A stretch of 64,000 nucleotides of DNA from Bdellovibrionales bacterium (GTDB lineage Bacteria; Bdellovibrionota; Bdellovibrionia; Bdellovibrionales; JAUICD01). Both the position numbers and the translations under genes were made by a program. Below, piece after piece: positions 14,666 to 58,343 of this stretch. Below the pieces are notes generated by a model. The model saw only the letters and a program-made list of their open reading frames with translations. It was not told where the DNA came from and searched no databases. The DNA is taken from NCBI GenBank assembly GCA_965262715.1, contig OZ253553.1, positions 2,720,001 to 2,784,000 on the forward strand. The letters run 5' to 3'. Positions within the stretch are counted from its first letter, which is position 1. Each line of letters starts with the position of its first letter.

Positions 14666-15343
14666 TCTTAGTCTATGGTATATCTAAATAATAACCCTTA
14701 TGAAAAGACACACCATATCTAAATCATTAGAAAGGTAGTTTTGTGCTAGTGAGTTTTTTAGCAAGGCCTTCTGGTTTTGACTCTCTTCATGGTTATTTTC
14801 TCAACATCAAATAAAAACTCTTTGGCAAAATAACCCGACCCTAATAGTAATGATATATTTATAATCAATTTAATGAGTGTCTCCACTTTTCCTCCTTTTG
14901 CAAAAATTATGGTTTATAAATATCCTTTATGATTTTATGCTTTCTTAAAGCCCTTAAAATAGAGCTTTTTGGCTATGAAAATTAAGTGAGTTTTTCAATA
15001 TCACGAGTGGAAAGCTTGAGATCAACATACAATTTTAAGTAAAATTTCTAAATTTTTTCATGGAACATTAAGAAAACGTGTAATAAATAAAGATACATAA
15101 CTAGAACTATCGGAGGAAATACCTATAAATATGGCTACTGAAATATTATAGATTTTCGTTTTCGACAATTTGTAGCAGTAGTGCCGCCATTTGCACCTAC
15201 ACAGTGCCATGTATAATGTGTATTTGTATCGGCTATAGCTGCATCATTTGCTCTACCAGCAGAGCAACCGTTTTGTTGACTCTCATCACAAACACTGTTT
15301 ACTGGACAGGTTTTTGAATGTTCCAGGAAAAAATTTAGAAATT

Positions 15344-18300
15344 TTACTTACGTTTGAAACATATTACTGTTCCACCGCCATTTGAACCTTCACAAAGCCA
15401 TCCGTAATGTGTATCTGTATCTGCAAACGCGCCGTCGTTTGCAGTGCCGGAAGAGCAGGTATTTCTTTGGTTTTCTTGACTCTGGGAGCTGCCACCACTA
15501 CAAGCACCGTGTATTGGTGGTTTCTGTATCTGACAATTTGTAGCAGTAGCACCGCCTTTTGCGCCCATACAGAGCCATGTATAATGTGTATCTGTATCAT
15601 CTATTGCGCCGTCGTCTGGAGTCCCAGAGCTGCAGCCATTTCGTTGGCTGTTATCACAAACTCCTTCGATGATACTTTTTAATCTGGTACAATTTTGATT
15701 TCTACCTCCATGCAAACCTTCACAAACCCATTCATAATAGTAAATATTGTACCCATCTAGAAATGCATTTGCAGTTCCAGAAGAACAACCATTTCTTTGA
15801 TTCTGATCACAAACGCCATCGATAGGTATTAGCTTTTGACAATCTATAGCAGTAGTGCCGAAATTTGCACCTATGCAGTACCATCTATAATGTGTATTTG
15901 TATCTGCAATAACGCCGTCGTTTGCAGTGCCGGAAGAGCAGCTATTTTGTTTACTGTTATCACAAACGCCATGGATAGGCTAGTTTTTGACAATTTTGTG
16001 CTGTAGTGCCGCCATTTGAACCTTCACAGTGCCATGTATAATGTGTATTTGTATCGGCTATTACGGCGTCGTTTGCTCTGCCAGCAGAGCAGCCATTTCG
16101 CTGACTGTTATTACAAACACCGTTTACTGGTGCAGGTTTTGCCTTTTGACAATTTTGTGCTGTAGTGCCGCCGTTTGCACCTACGCAGTACCATCTATAA
16201 TGTGTATTTGTATCTGCAATAGCGTTGTCATTAGCAGTACCAGCAGAGCAGCCATTTTGTTGGTTGTTATCACAAGCACCGTTAATAGATTTTGCCTTTT
16301 GACAATTTTGTGCAGTAGTGCCGCCATTTGCACCTACGCAGTGCCATCTATAATGTGTATTTGTATCGGCTATTGCACCATCGTTTGCAGTGCCCGAAGA
16401 ACAGTCATTTCTTTGAGCATTATTACAAGCACCGTTAATAGATTTTGCCTTTTGACAATTTTGTGTTGTAGTGCCGCCGTTTGCACCTATGCAGTACCAT
16501 CTATAATGTGTATTTGTATCTGTTATAGCTGAGTCATTAGCAGTACCAGCAGAGCAGCCATTTTGTTGGTTGTTATCACAAGCACCGTTAATAGGTTTTG
16601 CCTTTTGACAATTTGTAGCAGTAGTGCCGCCGTTTGCACCTACGCAGTGCCATCTATAATGTGTATTTGTATCTGCAATAGCGTTGTCATTAGCAGTACC
16701 AGCAGAGCAGCCATTTTGTTGGTTGTTATCACAAGCACCGTTAATAGGTTTTGCTTTTTAACAATTTTGTGCAGTAGTGCCGCCGTTCGCACCTACGCAG
16801 TGCCATCTATAATGTGTATTTGTATCGGCTATAACTGAATCATTTGCTGTGCCAGCAGAACAACCATTTTGTTGACTGTTATTACAAACGCCGTTTACTG
16901 GTGCAGATTTTGCTTTTTGACAATTTGTAGCTGTAGTGCCGCCATTTTTACCTACACAGTGCCATGTATAATGAGTATTTGTATCTGCTATTACGTCGTC
17001 ATTTGCAGTTCCAGAAGAACAGCTATTTCTTTGACTGTTATTACAAACGCCGTTTACCGGTGCAGATTTTGCTTTTTGACAATTTGTAGCAGTAGTGCCG
17101 CCATTTTTACCCACACAGTGCCATGTATAATGAGTATTTGTATCTGCTATCGCTGAGTCATTTGCAGTTCCAGAAGAACAACCATTTTGTTGACTGTTAT
17201 TACAAACGCCGTTTACCGGTGCAGATTTTGCTTTTTGACAATTTGTAGCAGTAGTGCCGCCATTTGAACCTACACAATGCCATGTATAATGAGTGCTTGT
17301 ATCTGCTATAGCTGAATCATTTCCTATACCCGAAGAGCAGCTATTTCTTCGACTGTTGTTACAGACGCCATTGACAGGGATAGCTTTTGTACAACTTGCT
17401 GTTGCACCACCATTTGAGCCAACACAATGCCATGTATAATGAGTACTTGTATCAGCTATTGCGCCGTCGTCTGGAGTCCCAGCAGTACAACCATTTCTGA
17501 TGGTGTCATCGCCGCAAACACCATTTATTGGTGCTGCTGTATCAATGGCCATACTGCAGCAACCTGTAGCATCAGTGCCATCGTTGGTACCTAAACACTG
17601 CCACTGATAATGAGTTTCTGAATCATCTATGTCATTTAAAGTACCTTGACTGCAACCATTCTTAACGGAGTTATTACATTCTCCATTTACGATTGAAGAT
17701 GGATTGCGTGTAACACTCTGGCTTAATATAGAATTGTCACAAGTCTGATAACTTAATGGACCAGGTAAAGGTCCGGAAAAATAACAATAACTGCCTCCTG
17801 ATGGACAGTAATTATAATAAAACTGTTCAACTATACCATCTACTGAAGTTTGACTATCTATAGTGGTAGAAGAAGAGGTTGAAGCTTGTATTGCTATAGT
17901 ACTTTTTACACATGATTCACTTGAAGTGATATCTATTACACCATCACTGCAATTTAGTACATCCTCACTGCCACTATCAATTTGAAGTTCACATTGATTC
18001 GCATTTTGAATATTTGTATGTAATGTCCAAGTTCCACCTTCAGGTCTTAAATACTTATAAATGTTATTATTTTCTAACATCACAGCAATTTCTTCATCAT
18101 TATGTTTAATAATTATTGGATTAAAATGAGGTTTAGAATTAGAGCTCACTTGCAAAACTTGTTTTCGATAGGTGAGGCAATCAGAATTGTCAGGATCTTC
18201 TGCAGACACCTCAATAGTAACAGAACCAGTAGATTCATCGGTAAAGTCTAATTCAATACTTTCACTATCATCTTCGTTTGTCTCCTCAGTTGAAGAAGGT

Positions 18301-18911
18301 AATGTGACTTTCCATATAATGTTCGAAAAATCTGTAGCATTCTTTAATTCAAAAGTGGCAGTCTGTCCAACAGTCAAAGAACCGCTTTCAAGAAAGATCT
18401 CTAAGACATCTGTTAATGAGCATTCCTCACCAATCACGAGTTTTTTACTGGCCACAGTTAACAAATCGGAGTTTTTATAAGATGTAGCAAAAATATCATA
18501 ACTTCCAGGTTTTTTAAATTGATATTGATATTCTGGTTCAGTTGTTGTCTCTTCTCCATCAGTAACAATTTCAAAGGCTCTAGTGATTTTCCATTTAAAA
18601 TCTTCAGAATCAGAATGACTATTCATAACCTTTAGTTTCACATCAGTATCAATTAGGAAATGATCTTCTATCGAGATGCTTTCATCTTCTGATGGTAAAT
18701 AAGCAATAATATAACCTTTATCATTAGATACCGTTTGTTCAGAAAACAGGTTAGGAGCTTGACTTACATTTGAACCGCAGTTTTGAAAAGCTAATAACAA
18801 GAAAAGTGAAGCCAATAGAATTATATAAAAAGTATTATTAAAACTTAACAAAAAATGCTTTTTTATGTTTCGTTTTTTTATAACCCTAAAGAATTTCATT
18901 ATTCTTGTCAT
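15344..18911 (-). pseudogene. Large Cys-rich tandem-repeat surface lipoprotein (~15 units of 51-53 aa), broken by a stop at 16758-16760 and a frameshift at ~15981
   Basis: FQNC motif; repeats PxNGxC..NGC.SG..DT.THY.W.C.G.NGG....C continue in frame past the TAA (CAA in sister repeats); a detached extra unit lies at ~15160-15310. Confidence 0.8.
16758..18911 (-). CDS. Intact 717-aa N-terminal portion of the Cys-rich repeat protein
   Basis: ORF track; signal/FQNC motif, beta-rich domains, first 6 repeats. Confidence 0.75.
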   Translation of the reverse strand: MTRIMKFFRVIKKRNIKKHFLLSFNNTFYIILLASLFLLLAFQNCGSNVSQAPNLFSEQTVSNDKGYIIAYLPSEDESISIEDHFLIDTDVKLKVMNSHSDSEDFKWKITRAFEIVTDGEETTTEPEYQYQFKKPGSYDIFATSYKNSDLLTVASKKLVIGEECSLTDVLEIFLESGSLTVGQTATFELKNATDFSNIIWKVTLPSSTEETNEDDSESIELDFTDESTGSVTIEVSAEDPDNSDCLTYRKQVLQVSSNSKPHFNPIIIKHNDEEIAVMLENNNIYKYLRPEGGTWTLHTNIQNANQCELQIDSGSEDVLNCSDGVIDITSSESCVKSTIAIQASTSSSTTIDSQTSVDGIVEQFYYNYCPSGGSYCYFSGPLPGPLSYQTCDNSILSQSVTRNPSSIVNGECNNSVKNGCSQGTLNDIDDSETHYQWQCLGTNDGTDATGCCSMAIDTAAPINGVCGDDTIRNGCTAGTPDDGAIADTSTHYTWHCVGSNGGATASCTKAIPVNGVCNNSRRNSCSSGIGNDSAIADTSTHYTWHCVGSNGGTTATNCQKAKSAPVNGVCNNSQQNGCSSGTANDSAIADTNTHYTWHCVGKNGGTTATNCQKAKSAPVNGVCNNSQRNSCSSGTANDDVIADTNTHYTWHCVGKNGGTTATNCQKAKSAPVNGVCNNSQQNGCSAGTANDSVIADTNTHYRWHCVGANGGTTAQNC

Positions 18912-21819: not shown

Positions 21820-22405
21820 CTTAAGAACTGCTAGATTTACTTTTGATACTTATACAAATGAGCTTATGTATAAAAATATGGGCACTGCTCAACAGCAGCC
21901 TCAAAATAGAGTTGTATAAATGTATGTATTGTACAAGTCATATAATGATACGAGTACGTTATTGGCACTTGCTTTGAATTTGCAGAACTTCTTTTTCTGA
22001 AAGTCCTGTTGCTTTACTTATGGCTTGTATATCCATATCAGTTGTCTTTAGAAGATTTATAGCAACTTTCTGCAAACCTTTCTGCAATCCTTCTTGCAAT
22101 CCTTCCTGTCGAGCTTCTTGCCTTATACGATCTCTCATCATTTGTAATGCTGGCATTGTTCTCTTCTCCTCTGATACGTTTTTTTCTTCTATCTCTTGTA
22201 AAGTATTCCAAGTAAAGCTTGGATCACAGAGCTTCACACAATCAACTGCCCTTTCCATTAAAAAGACACGGTCTTCTTTATTGGCAAGCTTATTGGATAA
22301 CTTAAACAAATCTCCAATGACCTGCTCATCTAAGTTCCATACACTCTTTAGTATAAACAAAATCGTCCCAGATAGCAAGTCCTTTGAGCTTAATTCTGCC
22401 ATTCC

Positions 22406-23775
22406 CGAATTACCTCAGAATATGTGTTACCGAGAGTTGGTAATGTAATTTTGATTTTCGGATTGGTTGCCTCACAACCCCTCTCTTATTTATCATTAAA
22501 AATAACCAACAATTTTAATGAATTTAGCAAACAAGGGAGGGTATCATGAGTTACCATACTATCTTAGAATATATCAATGAATTAGCCAAGTACTACTTTG
22601 AAGCTCAGAGAGTTAAAAAGACTCAAATGTTGGATCATGCTACTGAAGTCACCGGACTTCACAGAAAAACTATCATCAGACAACTTAAAATCTCAAAGAG
22701 GAGTCAATTAGCCAATAATAAGAAAAGATGCGGCGCAAAGCAAAAATACCCTACAGAGTTACTTTTACCTCATATTGAATATCTGTGGAAACAAATGGAT
22801 CGGATATCTGCTAGAAGAATGAAAGCTGCTTTGAAAGATTGGCTGCCTTACTACAATGAAAATAATGTGAATGATCAAGTTAGAAGTCTTTTACAAAAGA
22901 TGAGTGTCTCTACCCTAGATCGCTTCTTAAATCTTCTTAGAAAGCGATACAGAAGCTCAAAAAAAGGAATTTCTTCCACATCTCCAGCTACTTACATGAA
23001 AAATAAAGTTCCTATCAATACTTTAGACTCCAGAGTCACTCGACCCGGATACACTCAAGCAGACACTGTAGCTCATTGTGGAGATAGGCTTATTGGTGAA
23101 TTTATGAACTCTATTACTATCACTGACATCTATTCTACATGGACTGAAAATAGAGCTTTATTCACTAAGAAAGCTTTAGAGGTAAGACGCTGTTTTAGTG
23201 ATATTCAAAGGCACTTGCCATTTAAACTTATTGCTATTAATACAGATTCAGGCAGTGAATTTCTTAATAAACCGGTCTTCAATCAATTCAAAAATAATAA
23301 AGTTATCTTTACACGTTCTAGGCCTTATAAGAAGAATGATAACTGCTATGTAGAACAGAAAAACTATACTCATGTCAGAGAGCTTTTTCACTATTATAGG
23401 ATTGAGAATAAGGAACTTAAATCAATAATGAATGACATTTATATCAATTGTTGGAATCCTTATCAAAATTACTTCATGCCTTCTTTTAAGTTAAAAAAGA
23501 AAACTCGAATCGGAGCTAAAATTAAAAAAGAATACGATGAACCAATGACTCCTTATAAAAGATTAATAACATCTTCTCATATATCCGAAAAGCAAAAGGA
23601 AGCTCTCATACAGAAGAAGAAAAAACTCAACCCATTTAAATTAGTTAAAGCTAGAGAAAAAAAACTATCTGAATTCTTTAAACTACTCAACTTATATAAT
23701 AAACAAAGGAAAAATAATGAATAACTTAACTCTTATACAAAAACTCTTGGTAACAATTTATTCTGAGGCAACACG
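22406..23775 (+). mobile_element. Insertion sequence, ISNCY-like DDE/rve type, 1370 bp, TSD TTCC
   Basis: Imperfect TIRs CGAATTACCTCAGAAT / CGTGTTGCCTCAGAAT; TTCC at 22402-22405 and 23776-23779. Confidence 0.9.
22546..23724 (+). CDS. DDE (integrase-core) transposase
   Basis: QADTVAHCG, TDSGSEF and FTRSRPYKKNDNCYVEQKN motifs. Confidence 0.9.
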   Translation: MSYHTILEYINELAKYYFEAQRVKKTQMLDHATEVTGLHRKTIIRQLKISKRSQLANNKKRCGAKQKYPTELLLPHIEYLWKQMDRISARRMKAALKDWLPYYNENNVNDQVRSLLQKMSVSTLDRFLNLLRKRYRSSKKGISSTSPATYMKNKVPINTLDSRVTRPGYTQADTVAHCGDRLIGEFMNSITITDIYSTWTENRALFTKKALEVRRCFSDIQRHLPFKLIAINTDSGSEFLNKPVFNQFKNNKVIFTRSRPYKKNDNCYVEQKNYTHVRELFHYYRIENKELKSIMNDIYINCWNPYQNYFMPSFKLKKKTRIGAKIKKEYDEPMTPYKRLITSSHISEKQKEALIQKKKKLNPFKLVKAREKKLSEFFKLLNLYNKQRKNNE

Positions 23776-24619: not shown

Positions 24620-25510
24620 CTATCGTTTAGATTTTTCTTGAAGCTTACAAATTTCTTCCTTTGAAAAACCAGTAACTTTAGATATTTTTTCTGCACTCAT
24701 ACCAGTGTTTAGAAGCTTTAATATAACTTCTGCTATCCCTTCCTGCCGTCCTTTTTCTATTCCTTCCTGTTGCCCTTCTCTTCGAGCTAGGTTTTCTGCG
24801 CTAATTCTATCTCTCTCTCTTTTATCAAGTGCATCTAAATATTCTTCTAAAATTTCATCTTGGGATAAGTTCCAAAACTTCTTTCCTGTTTTTGTTGTAT
24901 TTTTTCCTTTCATAGCTTCTCTAAGGTCTTCTAATCTTTTAAGTCCTTCTAATGCGTCCTTAGTAAATTTTGTAACATCAAGAATAATCTGAGTATCGAC
25001 TCCATTTTTTAGCATATTTAAAGCAACATTCTCACGTTCTTTATGTAGTCCTTTTATAACTCCTTCTTCAAATCCTTCTGTGTGAATGAGTTTTTCTCTA
25101 TTGACTCTATTCTTCTTTTTCTTTTCAAGGATATGTAGGTATTCACTTTCAATCTCTTTTTGAGAAATATCCCGGTAGTTCTCTACTTCCCTTGTTATGT
25201 CAATATCTTGACTCTTAAAATTCTTATACAAAATCTGCTGTTTAGCTTTTTCCTTAAATTCATAAATTTTTTCTTTTGAAAAACCAGTGACTTCAGATAT
25301 CCTTTCTATTTCTACACCAGAATCTAGAAACTTTAATATGGCTTCCTCTACTCCTTCCTGTTGTCCTTTCTTAAATCCATCCTCGACACCTACTTTATAA
25401 ACATGTTCTTCGCTACTAACTCTATCTCTTTCCATCTTGTCATAGGCATACAAGTATTCCTCTTCACCTTCTTTTTGGGAAAAATTCCAAAGTTTCTCTG
25501 TTTCTGCCAT
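24620..25510 (-). CDS. Protein made of three fused Rpn C-terminal (RpnS-like) modules, no nuclease domain
   Basis: Three W.xSQ.E..EY..D..ERDR..EG..KG..HTH-like units; own RBS GAGGAG-ACGAT-ATG. Confidence 0.8.
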   Translation of the reverse strand: MAETEKLWNFSQKEGEEEYLYAYDKMERDRVSSEEHVYKVGVEDGFKKGQQEGVEEAILKFLDSGVEIERISEVTGFSKEKIYEFKEKAKQQILYKNFKSQDIDITREVENYRDISQKEIESEYLHILEKKKKNRVNREKLIHTEGFEEGVIKGLHKERENVALNMLKNGVDTQIILDVTKFTKDALEGLKRLEDLREAMKGKNTTKTGKKFWNLSQDEILEEYLDALDKRERDRISAENLARREGQQEGIEKGRQEGIAEVILKLLNTGMSAEKISKVTGFSKEEICKLQEKSKR

Positions 25511-25550
25511 ATCGTCTCCTCAACCCTTAAAGTCCTCATATAAAGTTTAT

Positions 25551-25790
25551 TACTTAGACTTATCTTGAAATTTACAAATTTCTTCCTTTGAAAAACCAGT
25601 AACTTTAGACACTTCTTCTCCACTCATTACAACGCCTTAAAAGTTTCAATATAACTTCCTTTATTCTTTCTTGTTGTCTTTCTTTTTTACCTTTCTTAAT
25701 TCCTTTTTCTATCCATTCTTATCATCTTTCCAGATGTTCTTCTCTGTGAGCTAGATTGTCTGCACTAACCCTCTCTCTTTTAGAGATCCT
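25551..25790 (-). pseudogene. Degenerate RpnS-like module (same at 58091-58330)
   Basis: RERVSADNLAHREE..EKGIKKG..SKVTGFSKEEICKFQ with stops and a frameshift. Confidence 0.7.
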
Positions 25791-25803
25791 ATCTCTTTTG
25801 GAT

Positions 25804-26406
25804 TTATAGATATTTTTTAAGATGTTCTAATTTTTTAAGTCTTTCTAACTCGTCCTTAGTAAATTTTGTAACATCAAGAATAACCGGGGTATCAACTCCA
25901 ATCTTTACCATATTTAAAGTAATGTTCTCACGTTCTTTTTGTAGTCCTTTTATAAATCCTTCTTCAAATCCTTCTTTGCGAATGAGTTTCTCTCTATTGG
26001 CCCTATTCTTCTTTTTCCTTTCGAGAACATACAAGTGTTCACCTTCATCCTCTTCTTGAGAAACATCCCAATAGTTCTCTACTTCCTTTGTTATATCAAT
26101 GTTTTGATTCTTAAAATTCTTATACAAAATCTGTTGTTTAGTTTTTTCATGAAACTTATGAATTTTTTCTTTTGTAAAACCAGTAATTTCAGATACTTTT
26201 TCTATCTCCTCATCAGCATCTAAAAATTTTAATATAACTCCCTCCATTCCTTCTTGTCGTCCTTGCTCAAATCCATCCTCAACACCTTCTTTATAAACAA
26301 ATTCTTCTCTAGTTATTCTATCTCTTTCCATCTTGTCGTAGACAGATAAGTTTTTTTCTTCACCTTCTTTTTGAGAAAAGTCCCAAAAGTTTTCTGCCTT
26401 TGCCAT
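25804..26406 (-). CDS. Two fused RpnS-like modules
   Basis: MAKAENFWDFSQ..; own RBS GAGGAG; paralogue of 24620-25510. Confidence 0.8.
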   Translation of the reverse strand: MAKAENFWDFSQKEGEEKNLSVYDKMERDRITREEFVYKEGVEDGFEQGRQEGMEGVILKFLDADEEIEKVSEITGFTKEKIHKFHEKTKQQILYKNFKNQNIDITKEVENYWDVSQEEDEGEHLYVLERKKKNRANREKLIRKEGFEEGFIKGLQKERENITLNMVKIGVDTPVILDVTKFTKDELERLKKLEHLKKYL

Positions 26407-26445
26407 ATCGTCTCCTCAATCCTTAAGGTTCTTATATAAATTCTA

Positions 26446-27432
26446 TTATTTAGATCTTTCTTGAAACTTACAAATTTCTTCCCTTGAAAAACCGGTAACT
26501 TTAGACACTTCCTCTGCACTCATACCAGTATTTAGAAACTTTAATATAACTTCCGCTATCCCTTCCTGCCGTCCTTTTTCTATCCCTTTTTCTATTCCCT
26601 CCTGTTGTCCTTCTCTGCGGGCTAGGTTTTCTGCGCTAATTCTATCTCTTTCTCTTTTATCAAACGCATCTATATATTCTTGTAAAGCCTCATCTTGGGA
26701 TAAGTTCAAGAGATGTTTTACTGCTTTTGCCATATCTTCTCCTTTATTTTCCAAACTCTTATATTCAGTATCATTCATTTTATATGAATTCTTTAATAAA
26801 TAACACCATGACTCTCTTATATCATACAATTGCTTTACATTTTTATCAAATTTCCCTAACTCTGCTTTTTTCACTAAAAATGAACCAGCCGTCGAGGTGA
26901 GCCTCTCGAGGTGAGCCTCTGGCTGTTTTTGGGCAATGACCCCGACGGCTAATGCCCTCGGCAAATAGGTCATTGCCTCAAAAACCTGTTCATTTTTAGT
27001 AAGAAGATACTCTTCATTTTTTAATAAGATGCTAAGGGAATATTAAAGCCTACATGCATATACCAATGCTCTATCTGTAAAATAAGGTTTTGATACTGTT
27101 TGCATCTCTACATTTACAATCTCTGTTTCCTGGGTACCTGATTGTGTGTTCCTTTTTAAATGCATTCTCAAGTCGAGAACAAATCTTCTACCAGATTCTT
27201 CACCTTTTATAACAGAAGGAGTATCAGGATGAAGATCAGGATCTAAAACGTCTACTTTTATAACTTCTGAATGTTTTGGAAGTGGCAAAAAATGTGTGAG
27301 TAGTGATTTTAAAGCTTCTTCATTGCCTTTAAAATAGGTTTTAAAAGCTGCGTCATTTGTTAATTTTAAAAAATGAGACTTTTTTAAAAATTCTTCAATA
27401 TCTAATAACTGATGTTTATTACTTGAACCCAT
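26446..27432 (-). pseudogene. Rpn (PD-(D/E)XK_2) nuclease with its centre replaced by a structured repeat; internal RpnS-like ORF 26446-26733 is intact
   Basis: Matches intact 33912-34868 on both sides of 26864-27043. Confidence 0.9.
26869..27040 (+). repeat. Structured repeat unit (second copy 59409-59566 lacks a 14-bp internal duplication)
   Basis: ACTAAAAATGAAC/GTTCATTTTTAGT stem and CAAATA bulge as in the other copies. Confidence 0.85.
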
Positions 27433-32230: not shown

Positions 32231-33343
32231 TTATTGGCACTTGCTTTGAATTTGCAGGACTTCTTTTTCTGAAAGCCCTGTTGCTTTACTTATGGCTTGT
32301 ATATCCATATCAGTTGTTTTTAGAAGATTTACAGCAACTTTCTGCAATCCTTTCTGCAATCCTTCCTGTAAACCTTTCTGTAATCCTTTCTGTAAACCTT
32401 CCTGCAATCCTTTCTGCAATCCTTTCTGCAATCCTTTCTGCAATCCTTTCTGCAATCCTTTCTGCAATCCTTCCTGTTGAGCTTCTTGCCTTATGCGATC
32501 TCTCATCATTTGTAATGCTGGCATTGTTCTTTTCTCCTCTGATACATTCTTTTCTTCTATCTCTTGTAAAATATTCCAAGTAAAGCTTGGATCACAAAGT
32601 CTCACACAATCAACAGCCCTTTCCATTAAAAAGATACGGTCTTCTTTATTAGCAAGCTTATTGGATAACTTAAACAAATCTCCAATGATCTGCTCATCTA
32701 AGTTCCATACACTTTTTAGTATAAACAAAATCGTCCCAGATAGCAACTCCTTTGAGCTTAATTCCGCTATTCCTAAATCATTTAAGTTTAATAATCTATA
32801 CTTATAATTTAAAACATTCTCACCAAAAGCCTTTTTAAGCTCTAAAGACTTAAAATTCAAATAATCATGGAAACTCAAAGGCAAATTCCATCCACTTTTA
32901 CCAGAGTAAACCAACACAGGGATCACTATGGATGGAGCTTTACGTTTTCCACTCTTAACATCTTTACTGTCTTTCTCGTAAATACTTGTCTGATACTTAA
33001 GAAACTGTAAAAAAATATCTGAGTCATTATAGGATTTATGCTCAAAAAGGAAAATAATTTCTACAATCTCATCTGAATTTTTCATCTTCACTGAAAAAAT
33101 CACATCAGCTCTCTGCTCCCTAAACACTTTATCTACAAAGACAGTCACTTTTGACTGTAGAGTTTTCCAATCAAAAAGATCAAATTCTTCAGGAGTTAAA
33201 ACCAAACGAAACAGGTCTAAGACATACCGCTCTTTGCTATAAACTTCATAAAACAAATGATTGAAAATGTGAAAAACTTCACGTTTCAACTCTTGTTTGT
33301 TTTTTGGAAATTTTGTCTTTTTATACTTAGAGTTTGCCATCAC
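32231..33343 (-). CDS. Rpn/YhgA-like nuclease, intact; internal RpnS-like start at 32524
   Basis: RADVIFSV, LFEHKSY, IPVLVYSG..W motifs; 11 GLQ(K/E) repeats; AGAGG RBS before GTG 33343. Confidence 0.9.
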   Translation of the reverse strand: MMANSKYKKTKFPKNKQELKREVFHIFNHLFYEVYSKERYVLDLFRLVLTPEEFDLFDWKTLQSKVTVFVDKVFREQRADVIFSVKMKNSDEIVEIIFLFEHKSYNDSDIFLQFLKYQTSIYEKDSKDVKSGKRKAPSIVIPVLVYSGKSGWNLPLSFHDYLNFKSLELKKAFGENVLNYKYRLLNLNDLGIAELSSKELLSGTILFILKSVWNLDEQIIGDLFKLSNKLANKEDRIFLMERAVDCVRLCDPSFTWNILQEIEEKNVSEEKRTMPALQMMRDRIRQEAQQEGLQKGLQKGLQKGLQKGLQKGLQEGLQKGLQKGLQEGLQKGLQKVAVNLLKTTDMDIQAISKATGLSEKEVLQIQSKCQ

Positions 33344-33613
33344 AAAACCTCTTAACTGACTATGAACCTTATTAAATGTAAAATCCTTAATCAAATGAAA
33401 ACTTCTACTTGCATCATAACTTAATTTCAAAAATATAAAAAAATACTCATCAAAGCCTCTCTAGATAAATCCTTCTACAACAAGGCCTCTGAAAAGTACA
33501 GTTCTTCGAGTCCATATTTCATTAGAAATGAAATGGTAAGATATTAGTTTTTTAAGACTTTGTTTTGCTTTCTCTAAAAAAACAGTATTCTCTCTAAAAC
33601 TCTCATATAAAAT

Positions 33614-33900
33614 CTATTGTTTAGATTTTTCTTGGAGTTTGAATATTTTTTCTTTTGAGAAACCAGTGATTTCAAGTACTTTTTCTACACTCATATCAGC
33701 ATGTAGAAGCTTTAATAAAATTTTTTCGATTTCTTGCCTTCCTTTTTTGAAGACCTCTTCATGAATTTTGAGGGCTTCTTCACGGACAAAGTTTTCTCTA
33801 CTTAGCCCTATCCCTTTTCTTTCTTATCAATTGCTTCTAAATATTCTCTTAAAACCTCATCTTGAGATAGGTTCCAAAAATGTTTCACTGCTTTTGCCAT
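33614..33900 (-). pseudogene. Frameshifted stand-alone RpnS-like module
   Basis: AAAGGAAAAAGT-ATG MAKAVKHFWNLSQDEVLREY..; length is not a multiple of 3. Confidence 0.75.
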
Positions 33901-33911
33901 ACTTTTTCCTT

Positions 33912-34868
33912 TTATATTTCCCTAAGCTTTTCTAACTCTTCCTTACTCAGTTTTGTAGAATCAAGAATAACTTGAATATCAATCCCATTTTTTAACATAT
34001 TTAAGGCGACTTTCTCTATCCCTTTTTCTATTCCTTTCTGTTGTCCTTCTCTTCGGGCTAGATTTTCTGCGCTAATTCTATCTCTTTCTCTTTTATCAAA
34101 CGCATCTATATATTCTTGTAAAGCCTCATCTTGGGATAAGTTCCAAAGATGTTTCACTGCTTTTGCCATATCTTCTCCTTTATTTTCCAAACTCTTATAT
34201 TCAGTATCATTCATTTTATATGAATTCTTTAATAAATAACACCATGACTCTCTTATATCATACAATTGCTTCACATTTTTATCAAATTTCCCTAATTCTA
34301 TGATAACAAAACATAATCCATTTGACATTAATACATGAGGAGGAGTGATCCGACAAATGTTACAAATATGGTGGTAGTCTTTAACATTTTTAAATTCTTT
34401 TAAATTCTTCGTTATGAAAACTAATGAGTACACGGGAAGTAACTTATCATAATCACTACCTTTTTTTAATTGTTGAGAATAAAGCCTACATGCATATACC
34501 AATGCTCTATCTGTAAAATAAGGTTTTGATACTGTTTGCATCTCTACATTTACAATCTCTGTTTCCTGGGTACCTGATTGTGTGTTCCTTTTTAAATGCA
34601 TTCTCAAGTCGAGAACAAATCTTCTACCAGATTCTTCACCTTTTATAACAGAAGGAGTATCAGGATGAAGATCAGGATCTAAAACGTCTACTTTTATAAC
34701 TTCTGAATGTTTTGGAAGTGGCAAAAAATGTGTGAGTAGTGATTTTAAAGCTTCTTCATTGCCTTTAAAATAGGTTTTAAAAGCTGCGTCATTTGTTAAT
34801 TTTAAAAAATGAGACTTTTTTAAAAATTCCTCAATATCTAATAACTGATGTTGATTACTTGAACCCAT
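33912..34868 (-). CDS. Rpn family PD-(D/E)XK_2 nuclease, intact; internal RpnS-like start at 34169
   Basis: NDAAFK, LDL, NVEMQ, DRALVY, IELGKF motifs. Confidence 0.9.
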   Translation of the reverse strand: MGSSNQHQLLDIEEFLKKSHFLKLTNDAAFKTYFKGNEEALKSLLTHFLPLPKHSEVIKVDVLDPDLHPDTPSVIKGEESGRRFVLDLRMHLKRNTQSGTQETEIVNVEMQTVSKPYFTDRALVYACRLYSQQLKKGSDYDKLLPVYSLVFITKNLKEFKNVKDYHHICNICRITPPHVLMSNGLCFVIIELGKFDKNVKQLYDIRESWCYLLKNSYKMNDTEYKSLENKGEDMAKAVKHLWNLSQDEALQEYIDAFDKRERDRISAENLARREGQQKGIEKGIEKVALNMLKNGIDIQVILDSTKLSKEELEKLREI

Positions 34869-36840: not shown

Positions 36841-38469
36841 ATGACAAAAGAGCAACCATTAGCAGGTATAGAAAAAGAGCTATGGCAAGCAGCAGATAAG
36901 TTGAGAGCTAACATGGATGCTTCTCAATATAAGGATATTGTTTTGGGGCTTATCTTTCTTAAGTATATTTCTGATAAATTTGATGAGTTTAGGGAAAAAC
37001 TTAAATCTGATCTTACAAATCCTCAACATGAGCACCATTTGCCTGATGCAAGTCAAGATGACATAGAGTTTGAATTAGAAGAGAGAGACTATTATAAGGC
37101 CAACACTATTTTTTGGGTACCTGCCCCTGCTAGATGGCATGGAAATAAAAATACAGAAGTAAAGGGTATTCAAGACAAGGCCAAGCAGTCAGATATTGGT
37201 AAAATCATTGATGATGCTATGGTAGCTATTGAAAGAGAAAATCCTAAATTAAAAAATGTACTTCCTAAAATTTTTACTCAGAGAGGAGTTAATATAAGGC
37301 TTGGAGAACTTATTGATTTGATCTCAAAGATTGGATTTAATAGCTCAGATCATCATGCGAAAGACATCTTAGGTCATGTTTACGAGTATTTTTTAGGACA
37401 ATTTGCTTCTGCTGAAGGCAAAAGAGGAGGACAGTTTTACACACCTAGGAGTGTGGTCAATTTAATTGTTGAATGTTTAGAACCTTATAACGGAAGAGTT
37501 TATGATCCAGCAGTTGGTTCTGGAGGTTTCTTTGTCTCTAGTAAACGGTTTATTGAATCTCATACAGATAAAAAGCATATCAACAAAGCTAAAAGGGACA
37601 TATCACTTTTTGGACAGGAGTCTAATCCTACCACTTGGAGACTTGCAGCTATGAATATGGCTATTCGTGGAATTGAGGTAGATTTAGGCAAACAAAATGC
37701 TGATACTTTTACAAATAATCAACATCTTGATTTAAAAGCTGACTTTGTGATGGCCAATCCTCCTTTCAATATGAGTGATTGGGGAGGGGATCAGCTAACT
37801 GATGATAGAAGGTGGAAATATGGTATGCCTCCCAAAGCGAATGCCAATTTTGCTTGGATTCAGCACATTATCTATCATCTCTCTCCTAGAGGCTATGCAG
37901 GAGTTGTCTTAGCTAATGGTTCAATGTCTTCTAATACGAGCAACGAGGGAGTTATTAGAAAAAATCTCCTTGAGGCTGATATTGTGGATTGTATGATTGC
38001 TTTGCCGGGACAATTATTTTTCAATACGCAAATTCCTGCTTGTATATGGATCATGGCCAAAGACAAGTCGGGGAAAAAGGATGATAGGCGCAGTAGAAAA
38101 AATGAAGTTCTTTTTATTGATGCTAGGAATATGGGGGAGATGATCAGTCGTGTTCAAAGGGCTTTTTCAGATAAAGATATTTTGCAGTTAGCTAGCATTT
38201 ATCATACTTGGCGTAATAAGGATAAGGGATATAGTGATCAGGCGGGGCTTTGTAAATCGGTCACATTAGAGGAGATCAAGTCTCATGATTATGTATTAAC
38301 TCCTGGAAGGTATGTTGGTATAGCGGAGGTCAAAGATGATGGTATTCCTTTTCATAAAAAGATGGAGAAATTGACTGGAGAGTTAAGAGATAGTTTTATT
38401 GAATCTAAAAAGTTAGAAAAGCAAATTAAGAAAAATCTTACAGGTATTGGGTTTAAGATAGATTTATGA
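36841..38469 (+). CDS. hsdM: Type I R-M methyltransferase subunit
   Basis: LWQAADKLR, GGQFYTP, YDPAVGSGGF and ANPPFN motifs. Confidence 0.95.
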   Translation: MTKEQPLAGIEKELWQAADKLRANMDASQYKDIVLGLIFLKYISDKFDEFREKLKSDLTNPQHEHHLPDASQDDIEFELEERDYYKANTIFWVPAPARWHGNKNTEVKGIQDKAKQSDIGKIIDDAMVAIERENPKLKNVLPKIFTQRGVNIRLGELIDLISKIGFNSSDHHAKDILGHVYEYFLGQFASAEGKRGGQFYTPRSVVNLIVECLEPYNGRVYDPAVGSGGFFVSSKRFIESHTDKKHINKAKRDISLFGQESNPTTWRLAAMNMAIRGIEVDLGKQNADTFTNNQHLDLKADFVMANPPFNMSDWGGDQLTDDRRWKYGMPPKANANFAWIQHIIYHLSPRGYAGVVLANGSMSSNTSNEGVIRKNLLEADIVDCMIALPGQLFFNTQIPACIWIMAKDKSGKKDDRRSRKNEVLFIDARNMGEMISRVQRAFSDKDILQLASIYHTWRNKDKGYSDQAGLCKSVTLEEIKSHDYVLTPGRYVGIAEVKDDGIPFHKKMEKLTGELRDSFIESKKLEKQIKKNLTGIGFKIDL

Positions 38470-38858
38470 ACATAACTTCTTTAAAACAATCAGTTCAAGA
38501 TTTAGAAAGAGCGTTAGAAATCTGTTATAAGAATACAGAAAACGGTGTACTTAAGGACGCTTGTATTTACAGATTTAAAAACACTTATGAGATCACTGTT
38601 AGAATGATAAAAAGGTATTTAAAGGAAACTTCAAGCAATCCTTTTGAAATTGAAAAACTAACTTTCAATCAAATGATCAGCAAAGCTTTTGAGGCTTCTA
38701 TTATTAAATTAGAGTTTGAAGATTGGAAAAAATTTAGGGATTGTCGCATAAAAGTTAGTGAAAGTTATCAAGAGGAAGTAGTAGATGAAATTTTAAAAGA
38801 GGTTCCATTTTTTTTAAAAGAAGTTAAGTACCTCATCAGTCGTCTTGACAAAAACTGA
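38466..38858 (+). CDS. HI0074-type HEPN protein lacking the R-X4-H motif
   Basis: DACIYRFKNTYE..W..FRDCRIKVSESY; ATGA overlap with hsdM. Confidence 0.8.
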   Translation: MNITSLKQSVQDLERALEICYKNTENGVLKDACIYRFKNTYEITVRMIKRYLKETSSNPFEIEKLTFNQMISKAFEASIIKLEFEDWKKFRDCRIKVSESYQEEVVDEILKEVPFFLKEVKYLISRLDKN

Positions 38859-38876
38859 AACAGGAGGAACAAAGCA

Positions 38877-39284
38877 ATGAATAAATACGAAAAGTTTCAA
38901 AAAGCTTTAAAGCATTTAGAGCGAAGAAATACAGAATATAAGAACATAGATGAACAGTCTCAATGGATAAGGGAATCTATTATAGAATCTGTTATCCAAA
39001 GGTTTGAAGTTTGTTGTGATTGTTTGTAGAAGGCTTTGAAGGCTTATTTAGAAGAGAATTTAAAAGATTCTAAGATTCCAAATAGCCCTAAACCAATTTT
39101 TGAAATAGTTTGTGAAAAAAACATTTTAAGTGTGCCTAAAGAACAATGGCATAAATATATAGATATGAGAGATGCCACTAGCCATGACTACAATCATCAA
39201 AAAGCTCAAAGAGCAATAGATATAATAGATGGTTTTACTGATGATACCACTGGTCTTTATCAAACAATGACAGGTCAAACATAG
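38877..39284 (+). pseudogene. HI0074-type HEPN protein with an in-frame TAG at 39027
   Basis: ESVIQRFEVC..*KALK..RDATSHDY; AGGAGG RBS. Confidence 0.8.
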
Positions 39285-39292
39285 GAGTTAAA

Positions 39293-39712
39293 ATGCTTAA
39301 TTTATCATCATTAGAGAGTGCTATCAATGAGCTTGAATATTTTTTAAATTCTTATGACTCTAAGGAACATCAAGGAGATCCAAAAATAGTACGTATAGCA
39401 GCTATTAAAGCTTTTGAGTTTACTTATGAGCTAACTTTTAAAATGATGGAGCGTTATTTAAGGGAGAGCGCAGCAAGTGTTGATGATTTTAAAAGCGCAA
39501 CTTTTAAATTAATTATTCGAAAGGCTTATGCAGCCTCTATCACAAGTAAGGCAATTGAAGAATGGGAGGAATTTAGAGAAAATAGGAACAAAACAAGCCA
39601 TACATATAAAGAGAAGATAGCAATAGAAGTTTTTGAAAAGATTCCTGCTTTTTTAGAGGAAGCTCGGTATATATTAAAACAGTTAAAAGAGAGGATAAAA
39701 CATCTTGAGTAA
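39293..39712 (+). CDS. HI0074-type HEPN RNase toxin with intact motif
   Basis: AAIKAFEFTYEL..W..RENRNKTSHTY (R-X4-H). Confidence 0.85.
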   Translation: MLNLSSLESAINELEYFLNSYDSKEHQGDPKIVRIAAIKAFEFTYELTFKMMERYLRESAASVDDFKSATFKLIIRKAYAASITSKAIEEWEEFRENRNKTSHTYKEKIAIEVFEKIPAFLEEARYILKQLKERIKHLE

Positions 39713-41462
39713 GCCTGATATTCGCCCTGATCATCTTAAGATTGTGCAAGACATTTTGAATAAGAGCCTTTCAAGTGATATAAAGGTGTGGGTTTATGGT
39801 AGTCGTGCCAAGTGGACCACTCTTGATTCTTCTGATTTGGATTTAGCTTTAGAGAGCAAAGACAAAATTGATTATGAAGTGATGAATCGCTTAAACTGTG
39901 ATTTTGAAGAAAGCAATTTGCCTTATGAAGTGGACGTTGTAGATATAAATACAGTGCAGCTTTTTTTTAGAGATATTATCAATAAAGACAAAGTTTTATT
40001 AGATCGTTATACTTCGATGAAAGGAAAGAAGACTATTCCAAAAGGTTGGCAAGAAGTAAGATTAGGTGATGTTATTTTTGTAAATCCATTGGAGGTAATT
40101 CCAAAAGATAATACTAGAAAAAAAGTCTTAATGGATGATTTAACTCCTTTTAGAAAGAAAATTTCTAATTATACTAATGACATATATAAAGGAGGATCAA
40201 GATTCAGAAATGGAGATACTTTATTAGCTAGAATAACACCTTGCTTAGAAAATGGAAAAACAGCTTTTGTTGATGTTCTAGAAAAAGATGAAGTAGGATT
40301 CGGTTCGACAGAATTTATTGTTATGAGAAGTAAGCCACATTTAACTGATAAGCATTTTTTATTTTACCTTGCTATCTCTCCTTACTTCAGAAATCTAGCC
40401 ATTAAATCTATGACAGGTTCTTCAGGAAGGCAGAGGGTTCAGACTGACGAAATTATGAATATTAAAGTTTTTTTACCACCACTTCCAGAGCAGAAAGCAA
40501 TTGCAGAAATATTATCAAGTTTAGATGACAAGATAGAGCAAAATCAAAATATGAATAAGATATTGGAGGAGATGGCACAAGCTATTTTCAAGTCATGGTT
40601 TGTTGATTTTGATCCTATTTATGCAAAAAGGATGGCTTTAGAAGCAGGATTAGCAGGAGGTCAAGCTGAACGAGCAGCAATGGCAGTGATTGCTGGAGTG
40701 TGTAGTCCTAAGCAATTTGCAGAGAATTTCAGGCAGATGGATCGTAGCTTAGGTGAAAAGTTCTTTAAGATAAATGAAAGTGCGAAGTATGAATTAATTT
40801 ATAAGGCGTCATTATTTCCAAGTGAGTTTGTAGATAGCAAACTTGGTCTCATCCCAAAGAGCTGGAATATTTGCAAAATTGGAGAAAAAATTGATTTTAA
40901 TCCGACAACTCTTTTAAAAAAAGGAACAGCTGCAAATTATGTTGATATGAAGTCATTACCAACTTCTGGACATAGAATCAAACAAGTTGTAAGGAGAATA
41001 TTTAAATCAGGAACTAAATTTCAAAATGGTGATACTCTAATAGCTCGTATTACGCCATATTTAGAAAATGGAAAAACAGCTTATGTGGATCGTTTGGAAA
41101 ATGAAGAAGTAGCATGGGGATCAACAGAGTTTATTGTAATGAGGTCAAAAAAAGATGTATTTGGTATCTGGACATATTTGCTTAGTAGAAATGATGATTT
41201 TAGACGTTTCGCTATATCTAATATGTCTGGAACAAGTGGGAGACAAAGAGTTTCAGCAGATCTCTTATCTCAATATGAAATACCATTGGCAAGCATTAAG
41301 ATTTTAAGTAATTTCAATAGGGTAGTCACATCATTTTTTGAAAAAATGAAAAAGAATAGTGTTGAAAGTTCCTATCTTGAAGGTTGTCGAGACATTTTAT
41401 TGCCTAAGCTTTTATCAGGAGAGATTGATATCTCCAAAATCAAAACAAAGGAAAAATTATGA
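39705..41462 (+). CDS. hsdS: MNT nucleotidyltransferase fused to a type I specificity subunit
   Basis: VYGSRA..SDLDL..YEVDVVD (~100 aa), then IPKGW, two TRDs, LPPLPEQKAIA and RDILLPKLLSGEI. Confidence 0.9.
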   Translation: MSKPDIRPDHLKIVQDILNKSLSSDIKVWVYGSRAKWTTLDSSDLDLALESKDKIDYEVMNRLNCDFEESNLPYEVDVVDINTVQLFFRDIINKDKVLLDRYTSMKGKKTIPKGWQEVRLGDVIFVNPLEVIPKDNTRKKVLMDDLTPFRKKISNYTNDIYKGGSRFRNGDTLLARITPCLENGKTAFVDVLEKDEVGFGSTEFIVMRSKPHLTDKHFLFYLAISPYFRNLAIKSMTGSSGRQRVQTDEIMNIKVFLPPLPEQKAIAEILSSLDDKIEQNQNMNKILEEMAQAIFKSWFVDFDPIYAKRMALEAGLAGGQAERAAMAVIAGVCSPKQFAENFRQMDRSLGEKFFKINESAKYELIYKASLFPSEFVDSKLGLIPKSWNICKIGEKIDFNPTTLLKKGTAANYVDMKSLPTSGHRIKQVVRRIFKSGTKFQNGDTLIARITPYLENGKTAYVDRLENEEVAWGSTEFIVMRSKKDVFGIWTYLLSRNDDFRRFAISNMSGTSGRQRVSADLLSQYEIPLASIKILSNFNRVVTSFFEKMKKNSVESSYLEGCRDILLPKLLSGEIDISKIKTKEKL

Positions 41463-42603: not shown

Positions 42604-45600
42604 ATGAATATGTTTAAGAAACTTTTTAATTCATCATCGTCATCACCTCAAAAGCTTTGTACTCAAACCACTTTAACAGAAAAAAACAATATGCGATCTC
42701 AACTTATAAAAGCTGTTTCTGAAATACTTCCAACACATTACATTTCTGAAGAAACACTTCAATCATGGCTGGAAAAGTTAGGAGCTTCAAAAGCATTAAA
42801 GCTATTGAAGCAAAAGCTACCAGAAGATAAAAAAAAGAATTCCGGTGATCTGGGGGAAATCTTAGCCACAGAATATGTAAATCATGAGCTGGAATATGAA
42901 GTGCCTATTAAAAAACTAAGATGGAAAGACTCACGAGAACAATCACTCCGTGGAGATGATCTTATTGGCTTTATTGATAAAGAAAATGTTTTAAAAATTT
43001 TAAAAGGTGAAGTTAAAAGCAGTGTTTATATAACACTATCCATTATAAAAAAGCTAGAGAAACAATTAAATTCTAATGAGGGAAGACCAAATCGACACTC
43101 AATCCTCTTTATAACTGAAAGGCTTCGTGAACTAGGAAACACACCTCTTGCAAATAAAATAGAGAGAATTATTGCTGAAGAGAGTATAAAGCGAGAAAAT
43201 ATTGAACATCTAGGATTTACTTTTTCGGGAAATTGTCCAAAAGAAATTCATTTAAAAAGTCTTAATAAATATAATGGTACAATTAAACGAATTTTTGTCG
43301 GTTTACATATTAGAGATCATCAAGATTTTATCAAGACAGTTTACCAAGAAGCTGTAACAGAAAAACCAATAAGACAGATAGTAAATAGAGAAATGAAAGA
43401 TGAAGAAAAACATCTGTCTTTAGAAGAACTGACTAAACCTGAATTTCGTGGACGTTTACTTGCAAGGGGCTTGGCCCGTGGAATGATATGGAAAGATGGT
43501 CGATCGCCAGAAGATGGGCCTAAATTTTCTAAAGAATTAACTGAAGATTTATTAGATTACGGATATGCTCTGTTTTCCATTGGACTAAAAAAACTAGAAT
43601 CCGAAACTGACAAGACTCTCTTAAAGAAAACTTTTCTTATAGCTGGTGAATCTATTGAGTCTGTTGTAAGAAAAGGTAACCCATTAGACCCTTATCGAGG
43701 TTATCATACTGTTGCATCTGCTATAGCATTTCATTTAGCAGGTTATTCTGCTCGTTCATACTGTATGATACCAGAAGATTTTAAAACATCATTAAATATC
43801 TCACATATTGAACTTGGTCTGATATATTTGTTACGTAGAGATTTATTCCAACTAAGAACATGGATTGAGGAAGTTTTTAATAAAGATACTTCATTTAAAG
43901 GAGACGATGAAGTTTCAAATGATGATCTCATACAACAATTTGCAATAGAAAATAACTTTTTGTCTGCTATGGCTTATTTAGAATTTGCTTTACAAACGGG
44001 TGATAACTCATTGATAGAAAATGCCTTTTCAAAATTAGATAATGGTATTTCTGTATCAAAAGATTTTTCTCACGTTCCAATGTGGTGGCAGAATTTTATA
44101 ACTAAATTCTTAGTAAAAGACTTGTGGAAACACACACTGCATGAAGTTATACCAAAAGGGCAAGAAACTAAATGGAATCAACTAAGACAGCTTTTTATTT
44201 CACTACTATATATGCGTGAAAAATCAGAGGTTGACCTTTGGCCCTCTCAACTTGAAGCAGGCAAACGATGTGTTGATGAAAAAGATGACCTTGTAGCGAC
44301 TTTACCTACGAGTGCGGGGAAAACTCGTATTGCTGAAATGTGTATTTTAAGAACTCTTTCACTTGAAAAAAGAGTCATTTATATTACACCGTTGAGAGCT
44401 TTATCAGCACAGACAGAACAAACTCTATCTGATACCTTTACTCCATTAGGCTTTACAGTTTCATCTCTTTATGGTGCTATTGGATCAACAAAAACTGATA
44501 TAGATACACTTAAAAGTCAAAATATCGTTGTATCCACTCCAGAAAAGTTAAGCTTTGCTCTTAAAAACGATCCTCAGATTTTAAATGATGTTGGGTTAGT
44601 CATCTTTGATGAGGCTCATACCCTCGGCTTGAATGAAAGAGAAATCAATTATGAAATTCTTATTCAGAAAATATTAAAGCGAAAAGATGCTGACAATCGT
44701 CGATTGGCTTGCCTTTCTGCGATGTTTCCTCAAGGACAAGAATTAAATAATTTTTTAAGTTGGATTCGACAAGACCAACCAGGTGAAGCTATTCAATCTG
44801 ATTGGAAACCTACACGTCAAAGATTTGGAGTTATTGAATGGAAAGACACTTATGCTCGCTTAGATTTTACAGTGGATTCGGAAAAACCATTTATTCCCAA
44901 ATTTATAGAAGGAAAACCTCCAAAATCAAGAAAAGGAAACTTTTTTCCTCAAAATAAAAATAAACTAGTTTTAGTTTCTGCATGGAAACAAGTCAGTGAA
45001 GGTCACAGAGTATTAATATATTGCCCACAACGTAGATCAGTAGAAGCCCTCGCAAAACTAGCTTTAGATTTGTGTAATAAAGACCATTTACAATCATTGA
45101 TTGAAAGTACTGAAACATCATCAAAGAGTTTAATTGATGATACCATTCAATCTGGAAAAGAATGGTTAGGTGAAGATCATATTGCTATTACATGTCTTAA
45201 ATTAGGTATAGCTGTGCATCATGCCGGATTGCCAAGGCCTTTTTTACATTCAATAGAAAGACTTATCAGGAAAAATATTTGTAAGATTATTATATCTTCA
45301 CCAACTTTAGCTCAAGGATTAAATTTATCTGCAAGTTGTCTTATTGTACACTCAATATACCGTAAAGGAAAGCCCGTGCCAAAAAAAGAATTTTTAAATG
45401 TTATTGGTAGGGTAGGAAGGGCTTTTATAGATATTGATGGGATTATATTATTTCCAGTTTATGAATCTGACAAAAGAAAAAGAGATAAACAAATTCTAGA
45501 ATGGAGACAACTTACAAGCTCTCAAATAGAAAATATTCAAAGTGGACTTTTTCTTTTGGTTGAGAAACTCATTACTCTTATTTCAAAGTACAGAGGATAC

Positions 45601-49899: not shown

Positions 49900-50106
49900 T
49901 TAAGAACACTTATTTAATGAAATTTCTAATGTTCCGTCATCAAGAAATTTAACTTCAATATCTTTCTTTGAATCACCTTTCTTAAATAAGACAAAATCTG
50001 CTTCTTTAAGACCTATTTCCATTAGAGAACCCCTGAATTTTATACCATAGTCTTTGGCTTTTGCGGCTATTTCTTTTATTTGATGTTCAAGGTCATTTTT
50101 TGCCAT
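49900..50106 (-). CDS. Small hypothetical protein directly downstream of Rpn
   Basis: 68 aa, AAAGGGG RBS. Confidence 0.6.
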   Translation of the reverse strand: MAKNDLEHQIKEIAAKAKDYGIKFRGSLMEIGLKEADFVLFKKGDSKKDIEVKFLDDGTLEISLNKCS

Positions 50107-56566: not shown

Positions 56567-56569
56567 TCA

Positions 56570-57147: not shown

Positions 57148-57156
57148 TTCTTCCTT

Positions 57157-58050: not shown

Positions 58051-58343
58051 ATCGTCTCCTCAACCCTTAAAGTCCTCATATAAAGTTTATTACTTAGACT
58101 TATCTTGAAATTTACAAATTTCTTCCTTTGAAAAACCAGTAACTTTAGACACTTCTTCTCCACTCATTACAACGCCTTAAAAGTTTCAATATAACTTCCT
58201 TTATTCTTTCTTGTTGTCTTTCTTTTTTACCTTTCTTAATTCCTTTTTCTATCCATTCTTATCATCTTTCCAGATGTTCTTCTCTGTGAGCTAGATTGTC
58301 TGCACTAACCCTCTCTCTTTTAGAGATCCTATCTCTTTTGGAT

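Follow-up and report, generated by a model that had tools for sequence, protein, structure and literature searches.

The window analysed here is a stretch of 64,000 nucleotides from a Bdellovibrionales bacterium (positions 2720001-2784000 of a single-contig 2.94-Mb genome, 33.6% GC), and our subject is a set of short open reading frames (ORFs) that trail an Rpn nuclease gene at 24620-27432 on the minus strand. The ORFs are built from modules that are homologues of the Rpn C-terminus (TIGR01784) without the nuclease part, and thus resemble RpnS, the antitoxin of the RpnL/RpnS gene-within-gene toxin-antitoxin system. A two-module ORF of 200 amino acids (25804-26406, minus strand) consists of module 1 with a G-type tail, a read-through linker, and module 2 with a K-type tail. 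Next come a frameshifted relic of a third module (25540-25803, minus), whose frameshift is confirmed in reads, and a three-module ORF of 296 amino acids (24620-25510, minus), in which the two-module unit is joined to a near-copy of the RpnS belonging to the Rpn gene at 33912-34868. This layout of separate ORFs, with two modules, a relic, and three modules, agrees with a preliminary description of the stretch. The nearest Atlas clusters of the modules include PF27070 HTH_Rpn_C, with recognition below threshold, and as far as sequence can tell their identity as RpnS-like holds. Module 1 of each ORF has its own Shine-Dalgarno (SD) sequence and ATG, both of which modules 2 and 3 have lost. The GAGGAG-type start that had been ascribed to each ORF proved distinctive, as its motif, GAGGAGACGATATG, occurs exactly four times in the 2.94-Mb genome: at the starts of both ORFs and of their duplicates.

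The Rpn gene heading the array (26446-27432) had been described as a PDDEXK_2-type nuclease gene. Its type was correctly recognized, but the gene is a pseudogene with a stop after codon 129. The remaining 5' part (27043-27432, minus) matches PF12784 positions 2-92 only and is near-identical to the 5' part of 33912-34868. A 181-bp copy of a palindromic dispersed repeat (26864-27044, no strand assigned; fold z -8.4) stands in place of 180 bp of nuclease DNA, and an X1 contig bridges the replacement with 0 differences. A complete nuclease was found neither in this gene nor in its duplicate. Contigs from runs X1 and X2, which come from two studies and one of which may be the source sample, match 24958-25601, 25580-25880, and 25854-26633 with 0 differences. 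Because of this agreement, assembly error was ruled out as the origin of the frameshifts or the broken nuclease.

The 3' part of the broken gene retains an intragenic RpnS of 95 amino acids with a G-type tail (26446-26733, minus), preceded by the SD GGAGA and an ATG. A predicted promoter-like site, TTGATA-17-TATGAT (26821-26849, minus), lies about 90 nt upstream of this internal start and was spared by the repeat replacement. It was the best site of a promoter scan (10/12 match), yet it is inside coding DNA; a promoter-like site stands at the matching position in all five PDDEXK_2 copies that retain the region. The scan was rejected as stand-alone evidence, having returned 12 sites versus 12.0 in shuffles. 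The dispersed repeat has 474 nhmmer matches across the genome, and preferential targeting of Rpn genes in this genome was also rejected, with 10 of the 474 matches at most 300 bp from an Rpn feature versus 9.0 expected. Several Rpn genes are replaced or interrupted upstream of the internal start by this repeat, which is ~190 bp long, leaving orphan RpnS frames, and it is also frequent in G001, at loci L013-L026 and L032. The genome has one Y1_Tnp gene, at 1839505. At the far end of the array, the YhgA-type Rpn gene previously noted is present but not intact: its 5' part (PF04754; 23726-24349, minus) and 3' part (21959-22402) are split by an insertion sequence (IS)-like transposase (22546-23724, plus), with matches to rve and IS481 that both fall below cut-off.

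How the modules arose is suggested by the DNA between them. The spacer that follows the broken gene (26407-26445, minus) contains in-frame stops and an SD, and is homologous to coding DNA before the internal start. The resemblance of the spacers to coding DNA around that start, pointed out previously, extends to in-frame homology with full-length Rpn: a codon-by-codon alignment pairs the spacers, as well as the linker joining module 1 to module 2, with the stretch that precedes the internal start and with that just beyond the tail stop. The linker codons correspond to the stop, the spacer, the SD, and the ATG; where the stop would stand, the fused ORFs have CAG, and they have lost the second SD and ATG. 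From these alignments we infer that the modules arose by duplication of the internal-start region. Recombination between look-alike DNA after the stop and before the internal start would have duplicated the RpnS region and set an SD-ATG-module unit behind the gene, and TAG-to-CAG read-through would have fused modules, the second SD and ATG being lost. The 200- and 296-amino acid ORFs represent one 896-bp duplication of a three-module unit, the third module of the first copy having decayed. Most other modules in the window would be decaying by-products of the same recombination.

Tails have also been swapped between nuclease families. Nine gene pairs are 77-90% identical in the tail but 12-14% identical in the nuclease, for example the PF04754 versus PF12784 pairs 1098637 and 662967, or 1002859 and window gene 50118, all with helix-turn-helix (HTH) tails. 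That such tails are so alike despite the low nuclease identity indicates exchange through the tetrads, which are four-residue repeats. The broken gene joins a 33912-type helix (97%) to another tail type (31%), and between copies the third modules have different tails and repeat numbers. Tetrad number is the main difference among three near-identical full-length Rpn proteins (P0012-P0014; 317, 329, and 341 amino acids); each is on a 77,804-base contig, and they are possibly paralogues or alternative calls.

The layout had been reported to recur in the window with one module at 33614-33900 and with about ten at 56027-58946. The former (minus strand) is a pseudogene, having a TAG after 29 codons, a frameshift, and no GAGGAG start. 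The latter does contain module-like stretches but is no independent array, consisting mostly of a duplicate and relics. The segmental duplicate (57293-59944, minus) is 98.7% identical to 24753-27418, includes ORFs 58344-58946 and 57157-58050, and has its 5' end cut by IS256 at 60079-61320. Its 200-amino acid product is identical to that of 25804-26406. Below it lie four module-like stretches, of which a single one combines an open frame with a start of its own: an intact RpnS-like ORF of 54 amino acids (56685-56849, minus) that carries its own SD and belongs to a different, YhgA-type Rpn family. Also located there are a chimeric relic module that has lost its start codon (56957-57145, minus) and a two-module frame (56027-56566, minus) with its native start lost and a stop just upstream. 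The module types number three, all of local origin. Beyond the window, at genome positions 2784824-2797947, three further collapsed cassettes running from PDDEXK_2-Rpn to YhgA-Rpn are free of modules. Candidate defence genes alternate with these cassettes, and among them the KAP NTPase and the 41459-type gene each appear a second time. Among 20 stretches from relatives, which had been chosen for tail matches, five (L013, L014, L015, L027, and L030) have one to three trailing modules.

Selection on the two-module unit was quantified with maximum likelihood (ML) codon models, because the neutral median of NG86 omega was 0.64 here. For the same reason, the raw NG86 value of 0.41 was not accepted when judged against 1; 2.8% of neutral runs gave 0.41 or less. 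For the pair of copies in the window, ML omega was 0.50-0.60 over 200 codons (p 0.012-0.035) and 0.34-0.44 for module 1 (p about 0.01). Both ORFs were still open in 1.4% of 4000 neutral simulations. Two-module proteins from other assemblies (P0003-P0006, four among nine matches of 1753 candidates) align gap-free over ~190 residues. Across five diverged copies at ~72% identity, all five frames stayed open in 0-2 of 600 neutral runs, and the mean BLOSUM score of substitutions was 0.42, whereas 3600 neutral simulations had a median near -0.15 and never exceeded 0.34. The end point LEHLKKYL is common to three 200-amino acid proteins. For forms of 200 and 288 amino acids the contig listed is in each case 10,872 bases long, and probably a single contig encodes both. 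Strain X6 had 20 differences in 293 bp of relic and spacers versus 3 in 311 bp of the 296-amino acid ORF (Fisher p 1.6e-4), though this cluster in the relic region may also reflect recombination. Clusters scoring below 1e-30 were limited to 2 among 1.84 billion representatives, and in 40 relatives we found module-level matches but no two-module orthologue. The evidence that the two-module unit is a gene of a narrow lineage under purifying selection is weak but real. Purifying selection, a check proposed at the outset, was seen to some degree for the 200-amino acid unit and module 1; module 2 is near neutral.

Tetrad number determines specificity in E. coli RpnC, in which, according to the available text of Zhong 2023 (PMC10400941), one added tetrad abolishes neutralisation. 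In the ORFs studied here and their homologues, the tetrad spacer is 16 residues long in every first and second module compared (18 of 18, from nine proteins, two of them duplicates), while it varies in third modules (8, 16, 20) and spans 4-32 residues in RpnL tails of the same lineage. Among the RpnS helices compared, that of 50118-51071 is nearest to module 1 (55-73% across homologues), that of 33912 is nearest to module 3 (82-88%), and module 2 falls in a clade of its own (95/96 support, 33 columns). Relative to the helix of the upstream RpnS, module 3 is 79-85% identical and modules 1-2 are 27-48% identical, with the trees drawn on about 30 columns. An AlphaFold model of the 200-amino acid protein contains two units of a long helix plus HTH (mean pLDDT 64, pTM 0.54). 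Its best VIA structural match among 27 chains was E. coli RpnA-S (7TH0), a weak one at Z 4.6 and root-mean-square deviation 1.7 over 46/46 residues. Foldseek returned nothing at E <= 0.001, with the comparison to the three-helix RpnS fold at E 7, and a sequence search of the PDB returned nothing below E 0.08. A predicted complex of two RpnL (33912-34868) with the 200-amino acid protein scored 0.02, with the fold of the partner uncertain, and was not counted for or against binding.

Multi-tail ORFs are not confined to this lineage. Of the 150 best representative matches, 19 have at least two tail units and match neither of the two nuclease profiles used. Three of these proteins are from this lineage; of the 16 others, all but one match TIGR01784 at E <= 0.001, a partial Rpn N-terminal region occurs in one, and an XRE-type HTH in one. 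Nine of the ten looked up from elsewhere were singletons. Their repeated occurrence, mostly as singletons, implies that multi-tail ORFs arise repeatedly and seem mostly short-lived. None of 7993 longer proteins scored (505-2000 amino acids) was a longer fused form, which is weak evidence; lengths above 518 were partly covered. Three of 157 shorter proteins (30-104 amino acids) matched, none of them a plain fragment of a two-module gene, with lengths 105-161 partly covered. The module ORFs pass the TIGR01784 cut-off, and annotation would label them nucleases or transposases.

Potential partners for the modules exist in the same genome. Genome-wide, 17 Rpn genes have an intact frame (14 PF04754-type and 3 PF12784-type), and by a loose test all 17 have an SD-like motif and ATG at the matching internal position. 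Two in the window are intact PDDEXK_2-type RpnL genes scoring above the TIGR01784 and PF12784 cut-offs: 33912-34868 (minus), a candidate target with internal SD and ATG at 34169, and 50118-51071 (minus), with internal SD and ATG at 50366. Both have a complete PD-(D/E)XK domain and retain D27, D87, E109, Q111, R121, and Y125, which are invariant across 22 aligned relatives. Two YhgA-type Rpn genes are also intact and match the family profile, at 32231-33430 (minus) and 54704-55756 (minus), the second of which closes the third cassette. Immediately after 50118 lies an ORF of 68 amino acids without a family match (49900-50106, minus), the start context of which, ATGGCAAAA, is the same as at the trailing module at 33900 and is a possible recombination microhomology.

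The surrounding region is a defence island with a type I restriction-modification (RM) system together with a KAP NTPase and a fusion of HamA to HamB; TIR-like and PD-T7-4-like matches are weaker. The Hachiman nuclease HamA and helicase HamB are fused into one ORF of 1418 amino acids (42604-46860, plus), placed between hsdS (39705-41462) and hsdR (51532-54645) of the type I RM system. The hsdS gene has an additional N-terminal region of ~105 amino acids. Between hsdM and hsdS (38466-39712, plus) are two or three HI0074-type nucleotidyltransferase substrate-binding genes, two of which match TIGR01987, one above cut-off. Elsewhere in the window (15148-18911, minus), a Cys-rich tandem repeat of ~153 bp lies within an ORF of 717 amino acids with a signal-peptide-like start; its frame breaks at 16758 and the repeats go on in 15344-15715.

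The statement in the preliminary description that no such arrays had been described was too strong, since separate rpnSs genes and tandem rpn arrays are in print. For E. coli, the available text of Zhong 2023 (PMC10400941) reports separate downstream rpnSs genes (ypaA/rpnESs, rpnCSs, rpnFSs, rpnP1Ss) as well as DUF4351 stand-alones, translation of separate rpnSs genes, RpnS as a dimer, an assay of the RpnS of the rpnD pseudogene, rpn arrays formed by tandem duplication, and rpn N-termini fused to rpnSs. Koonin's commentary mentions second RpnS copies (PMC10400984). In neither that commentary nor the text available from Zhong 2023 did we find mention of several trailing modules or modules fused in frame. 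The paper searches brought up these two texts alone as treating RpnS and none on fused modules, with subscription literature thinly covered, and Dataset S1 of Zhong 2023 may list multi-module genes. PMC13617665 has no passage on Rpn or orphans.

The module ORFs share much with the E. coli rpnSs genes as far as these are described in that text: they are downstream copies of the Rpn C-terminus with their own start and a local rpn origin, and they have tetrad repeats and a long helix plus HTH. They differ in having up to six trailing modules instead of one, two or three of them in one frame; in the frozen tetrad number of the fused unit; in the distance of modules 1-2 from the upstream RpnS; and in an upstream nuclease that is PF12784-type and broken. 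As they depart from one module per gene and from variable repeats, they are not plain RpnSs members, although we infer that they function like RpnSs. The intact genes 33912-34868 and 50118-51071 conform to the RpnL/RpnS system (TIGR01784; 7TH0) in their conserved residues, internal SD and ATG, and defence-island setting; toxicity, internal translation, and anti-phage activity are putative in this lineage, and the gene heading the array is dead. A further parallel is with orphan type II antitoxins, which are likewise antitoxin-like ORFs without an adjacent live toxin and many of which are remnants, according to the accessible part of PMC7354431. In contrast to those orphans, the modules here come from the toxin's own tail and form polyproteins.

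Taken together, we put at about even the chance that the ORFs are duplicated RpnSs copies, of which one fused lineage would have been kept as a single-chain, trans-acting antitoxin among the 17 Rpn paralogues. Transcription would begin at the predicted internal promoter that the repeat spared, the two modules would pair with each other in place of the RpnS homodimer, and the fused protein would attach to intact Rpn nucleases from other loci of the genome and dampen their action. A stronger version, which we regard as rather unlikely, is that the 200- and 296-amino acid proteins are multi-specific antitoxins, each joining two or three RpnS types in a single chain. They would buffer several of the 17 nucleases in trans and let the family expand and swap tails, and the multi-tail ORFs elsewhere would be convergent.

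Several results weigh against a retained antitoxin. The need for a spare is unclear because each intact RpnL carries its own RpnS. The three intact PF12784 RpnL here have spacers of 12, 8, and 4 residues versus 16 in modules 1-2; since the spacers differ and a single extra repeat abolishes neutralisation in E. coli, a simple cognate match is not evident. Compared with the four PDDEXK_2-type RpnS of the genome, the module 2 helix has an identity of only 27-48%, and module 2 alone is indistinguishable from neutral (omega 0.74-0.83, p > 0.4). Constraint on the module unit is much weaker than in the controls (nuclease omega 0.05-0.18, RpnL tails 0.06-0.27), and 90 of 190 columns are invariant compared with a neutral expectation of ~87, which is no excess. 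In strain X6, the 200-amino acid ORF had 21 differences in 525 bp, not significantly below the relic (p 0.09). Of its 17 listed differences, 11 were non-synonymous and 6 synonymous; all three differences in the 296-amino acid ORF were non-synonymous, giving 14 of 20 listed for both ORFs, with 40 of the 43 differences listed. Finally, the protein database is biased towards intact ORFs.

An explanation without function is unlikely in our estimation: the arrays may be debris of a recombination-prone Rpn cassette, in which the fused ORF has survived because its ancestry is recent, because of gene conversion, and because misfolded product is mildly selected against. The broken nuclease, relics, and IS insertions all around are what such debris would look like, as are the three module-free collapsed cassettes at 2784824-2796422, the near neutrality of module 2, the singletons among multi-tail proteins, and the absence of the two-module orthologue from the 40 relatives. 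Debris does not readily account for five lineages with gap-free open frames and conservative substitutions, an omega significantly below 1 for module 1, or the shared LEHLKKYL end. It is improbable, on the other hand, that the modules serve chiefly as recombination donors swapping RpnL tails, or that the fused protein has acquired a different role, for instance regulating the locus as an HTH protein. Exchange of tails between nuclease families, the mixed helix and tail of the broken gene, the variable third modules, and the fusions of rpn N-termini to rpnSs would suit a donor; frozen tetrads and a diverged module 2 are what release from cognate binding could leave. However, a donor requires neither an open frame of 200 codons nor its own SD, the module-2-type helix is in none of the RpnL compared, and DNA binding is putative.

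Orphan immunity arrays of polymorphic toxins and type VI secretion systems also have tandem modules behind a toxin gene and are possible recombination donors. By analogy, the preliminary description had proposed an expandable library of antitoxins, directed at Rpn toxins that are diverse or newly arriving, or else a sensor repertoire. The 296-amino acid protein does join three distinct RpnS types, the third locus adds an intact module of a YhgA-type family, and the region is a defence island with type I RM, Hachiman, and KAP NTPase genes. Orphan antitoxins have been proposed as anti-addiction modules, although the accessible part of PMC7354431 adds that such use is yet to be demonstrated as common. 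Expansion nonetheless reduces to one 896-bp duplication, one 98.7% copy, and relics; most of the modules it added are broken, none of foreign origin was seen, and the tetrads that would vary are frozen. The many intact, diverse, and acquired modules of orphan immunity arrays are not seen at this locus, where three or four types of local paralogue make up the modules and many are broken. We consequently find the library or sensor repertoire unsupported and very improbable.

On our reading of the ORFs as retained RpnSs copies, the system is a modest extension of the known Rpn system and not a new immunity library. Separate rpnS genes were demonstrated by Zhong 2023, the available text of which leaves their role for test (PMC10400941). 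A fused two-module RpnS with a frozen repeat length offers a test of whether separate RpnS copies act in trans, and of whether the tetrad specificity rule is general. If several RpnL are neutralised, the fused protein would be a poly-antitoxin built from the toxin's own tail. If none is, it would exemplify how Rpn loci generate and shed C-terminal modules.

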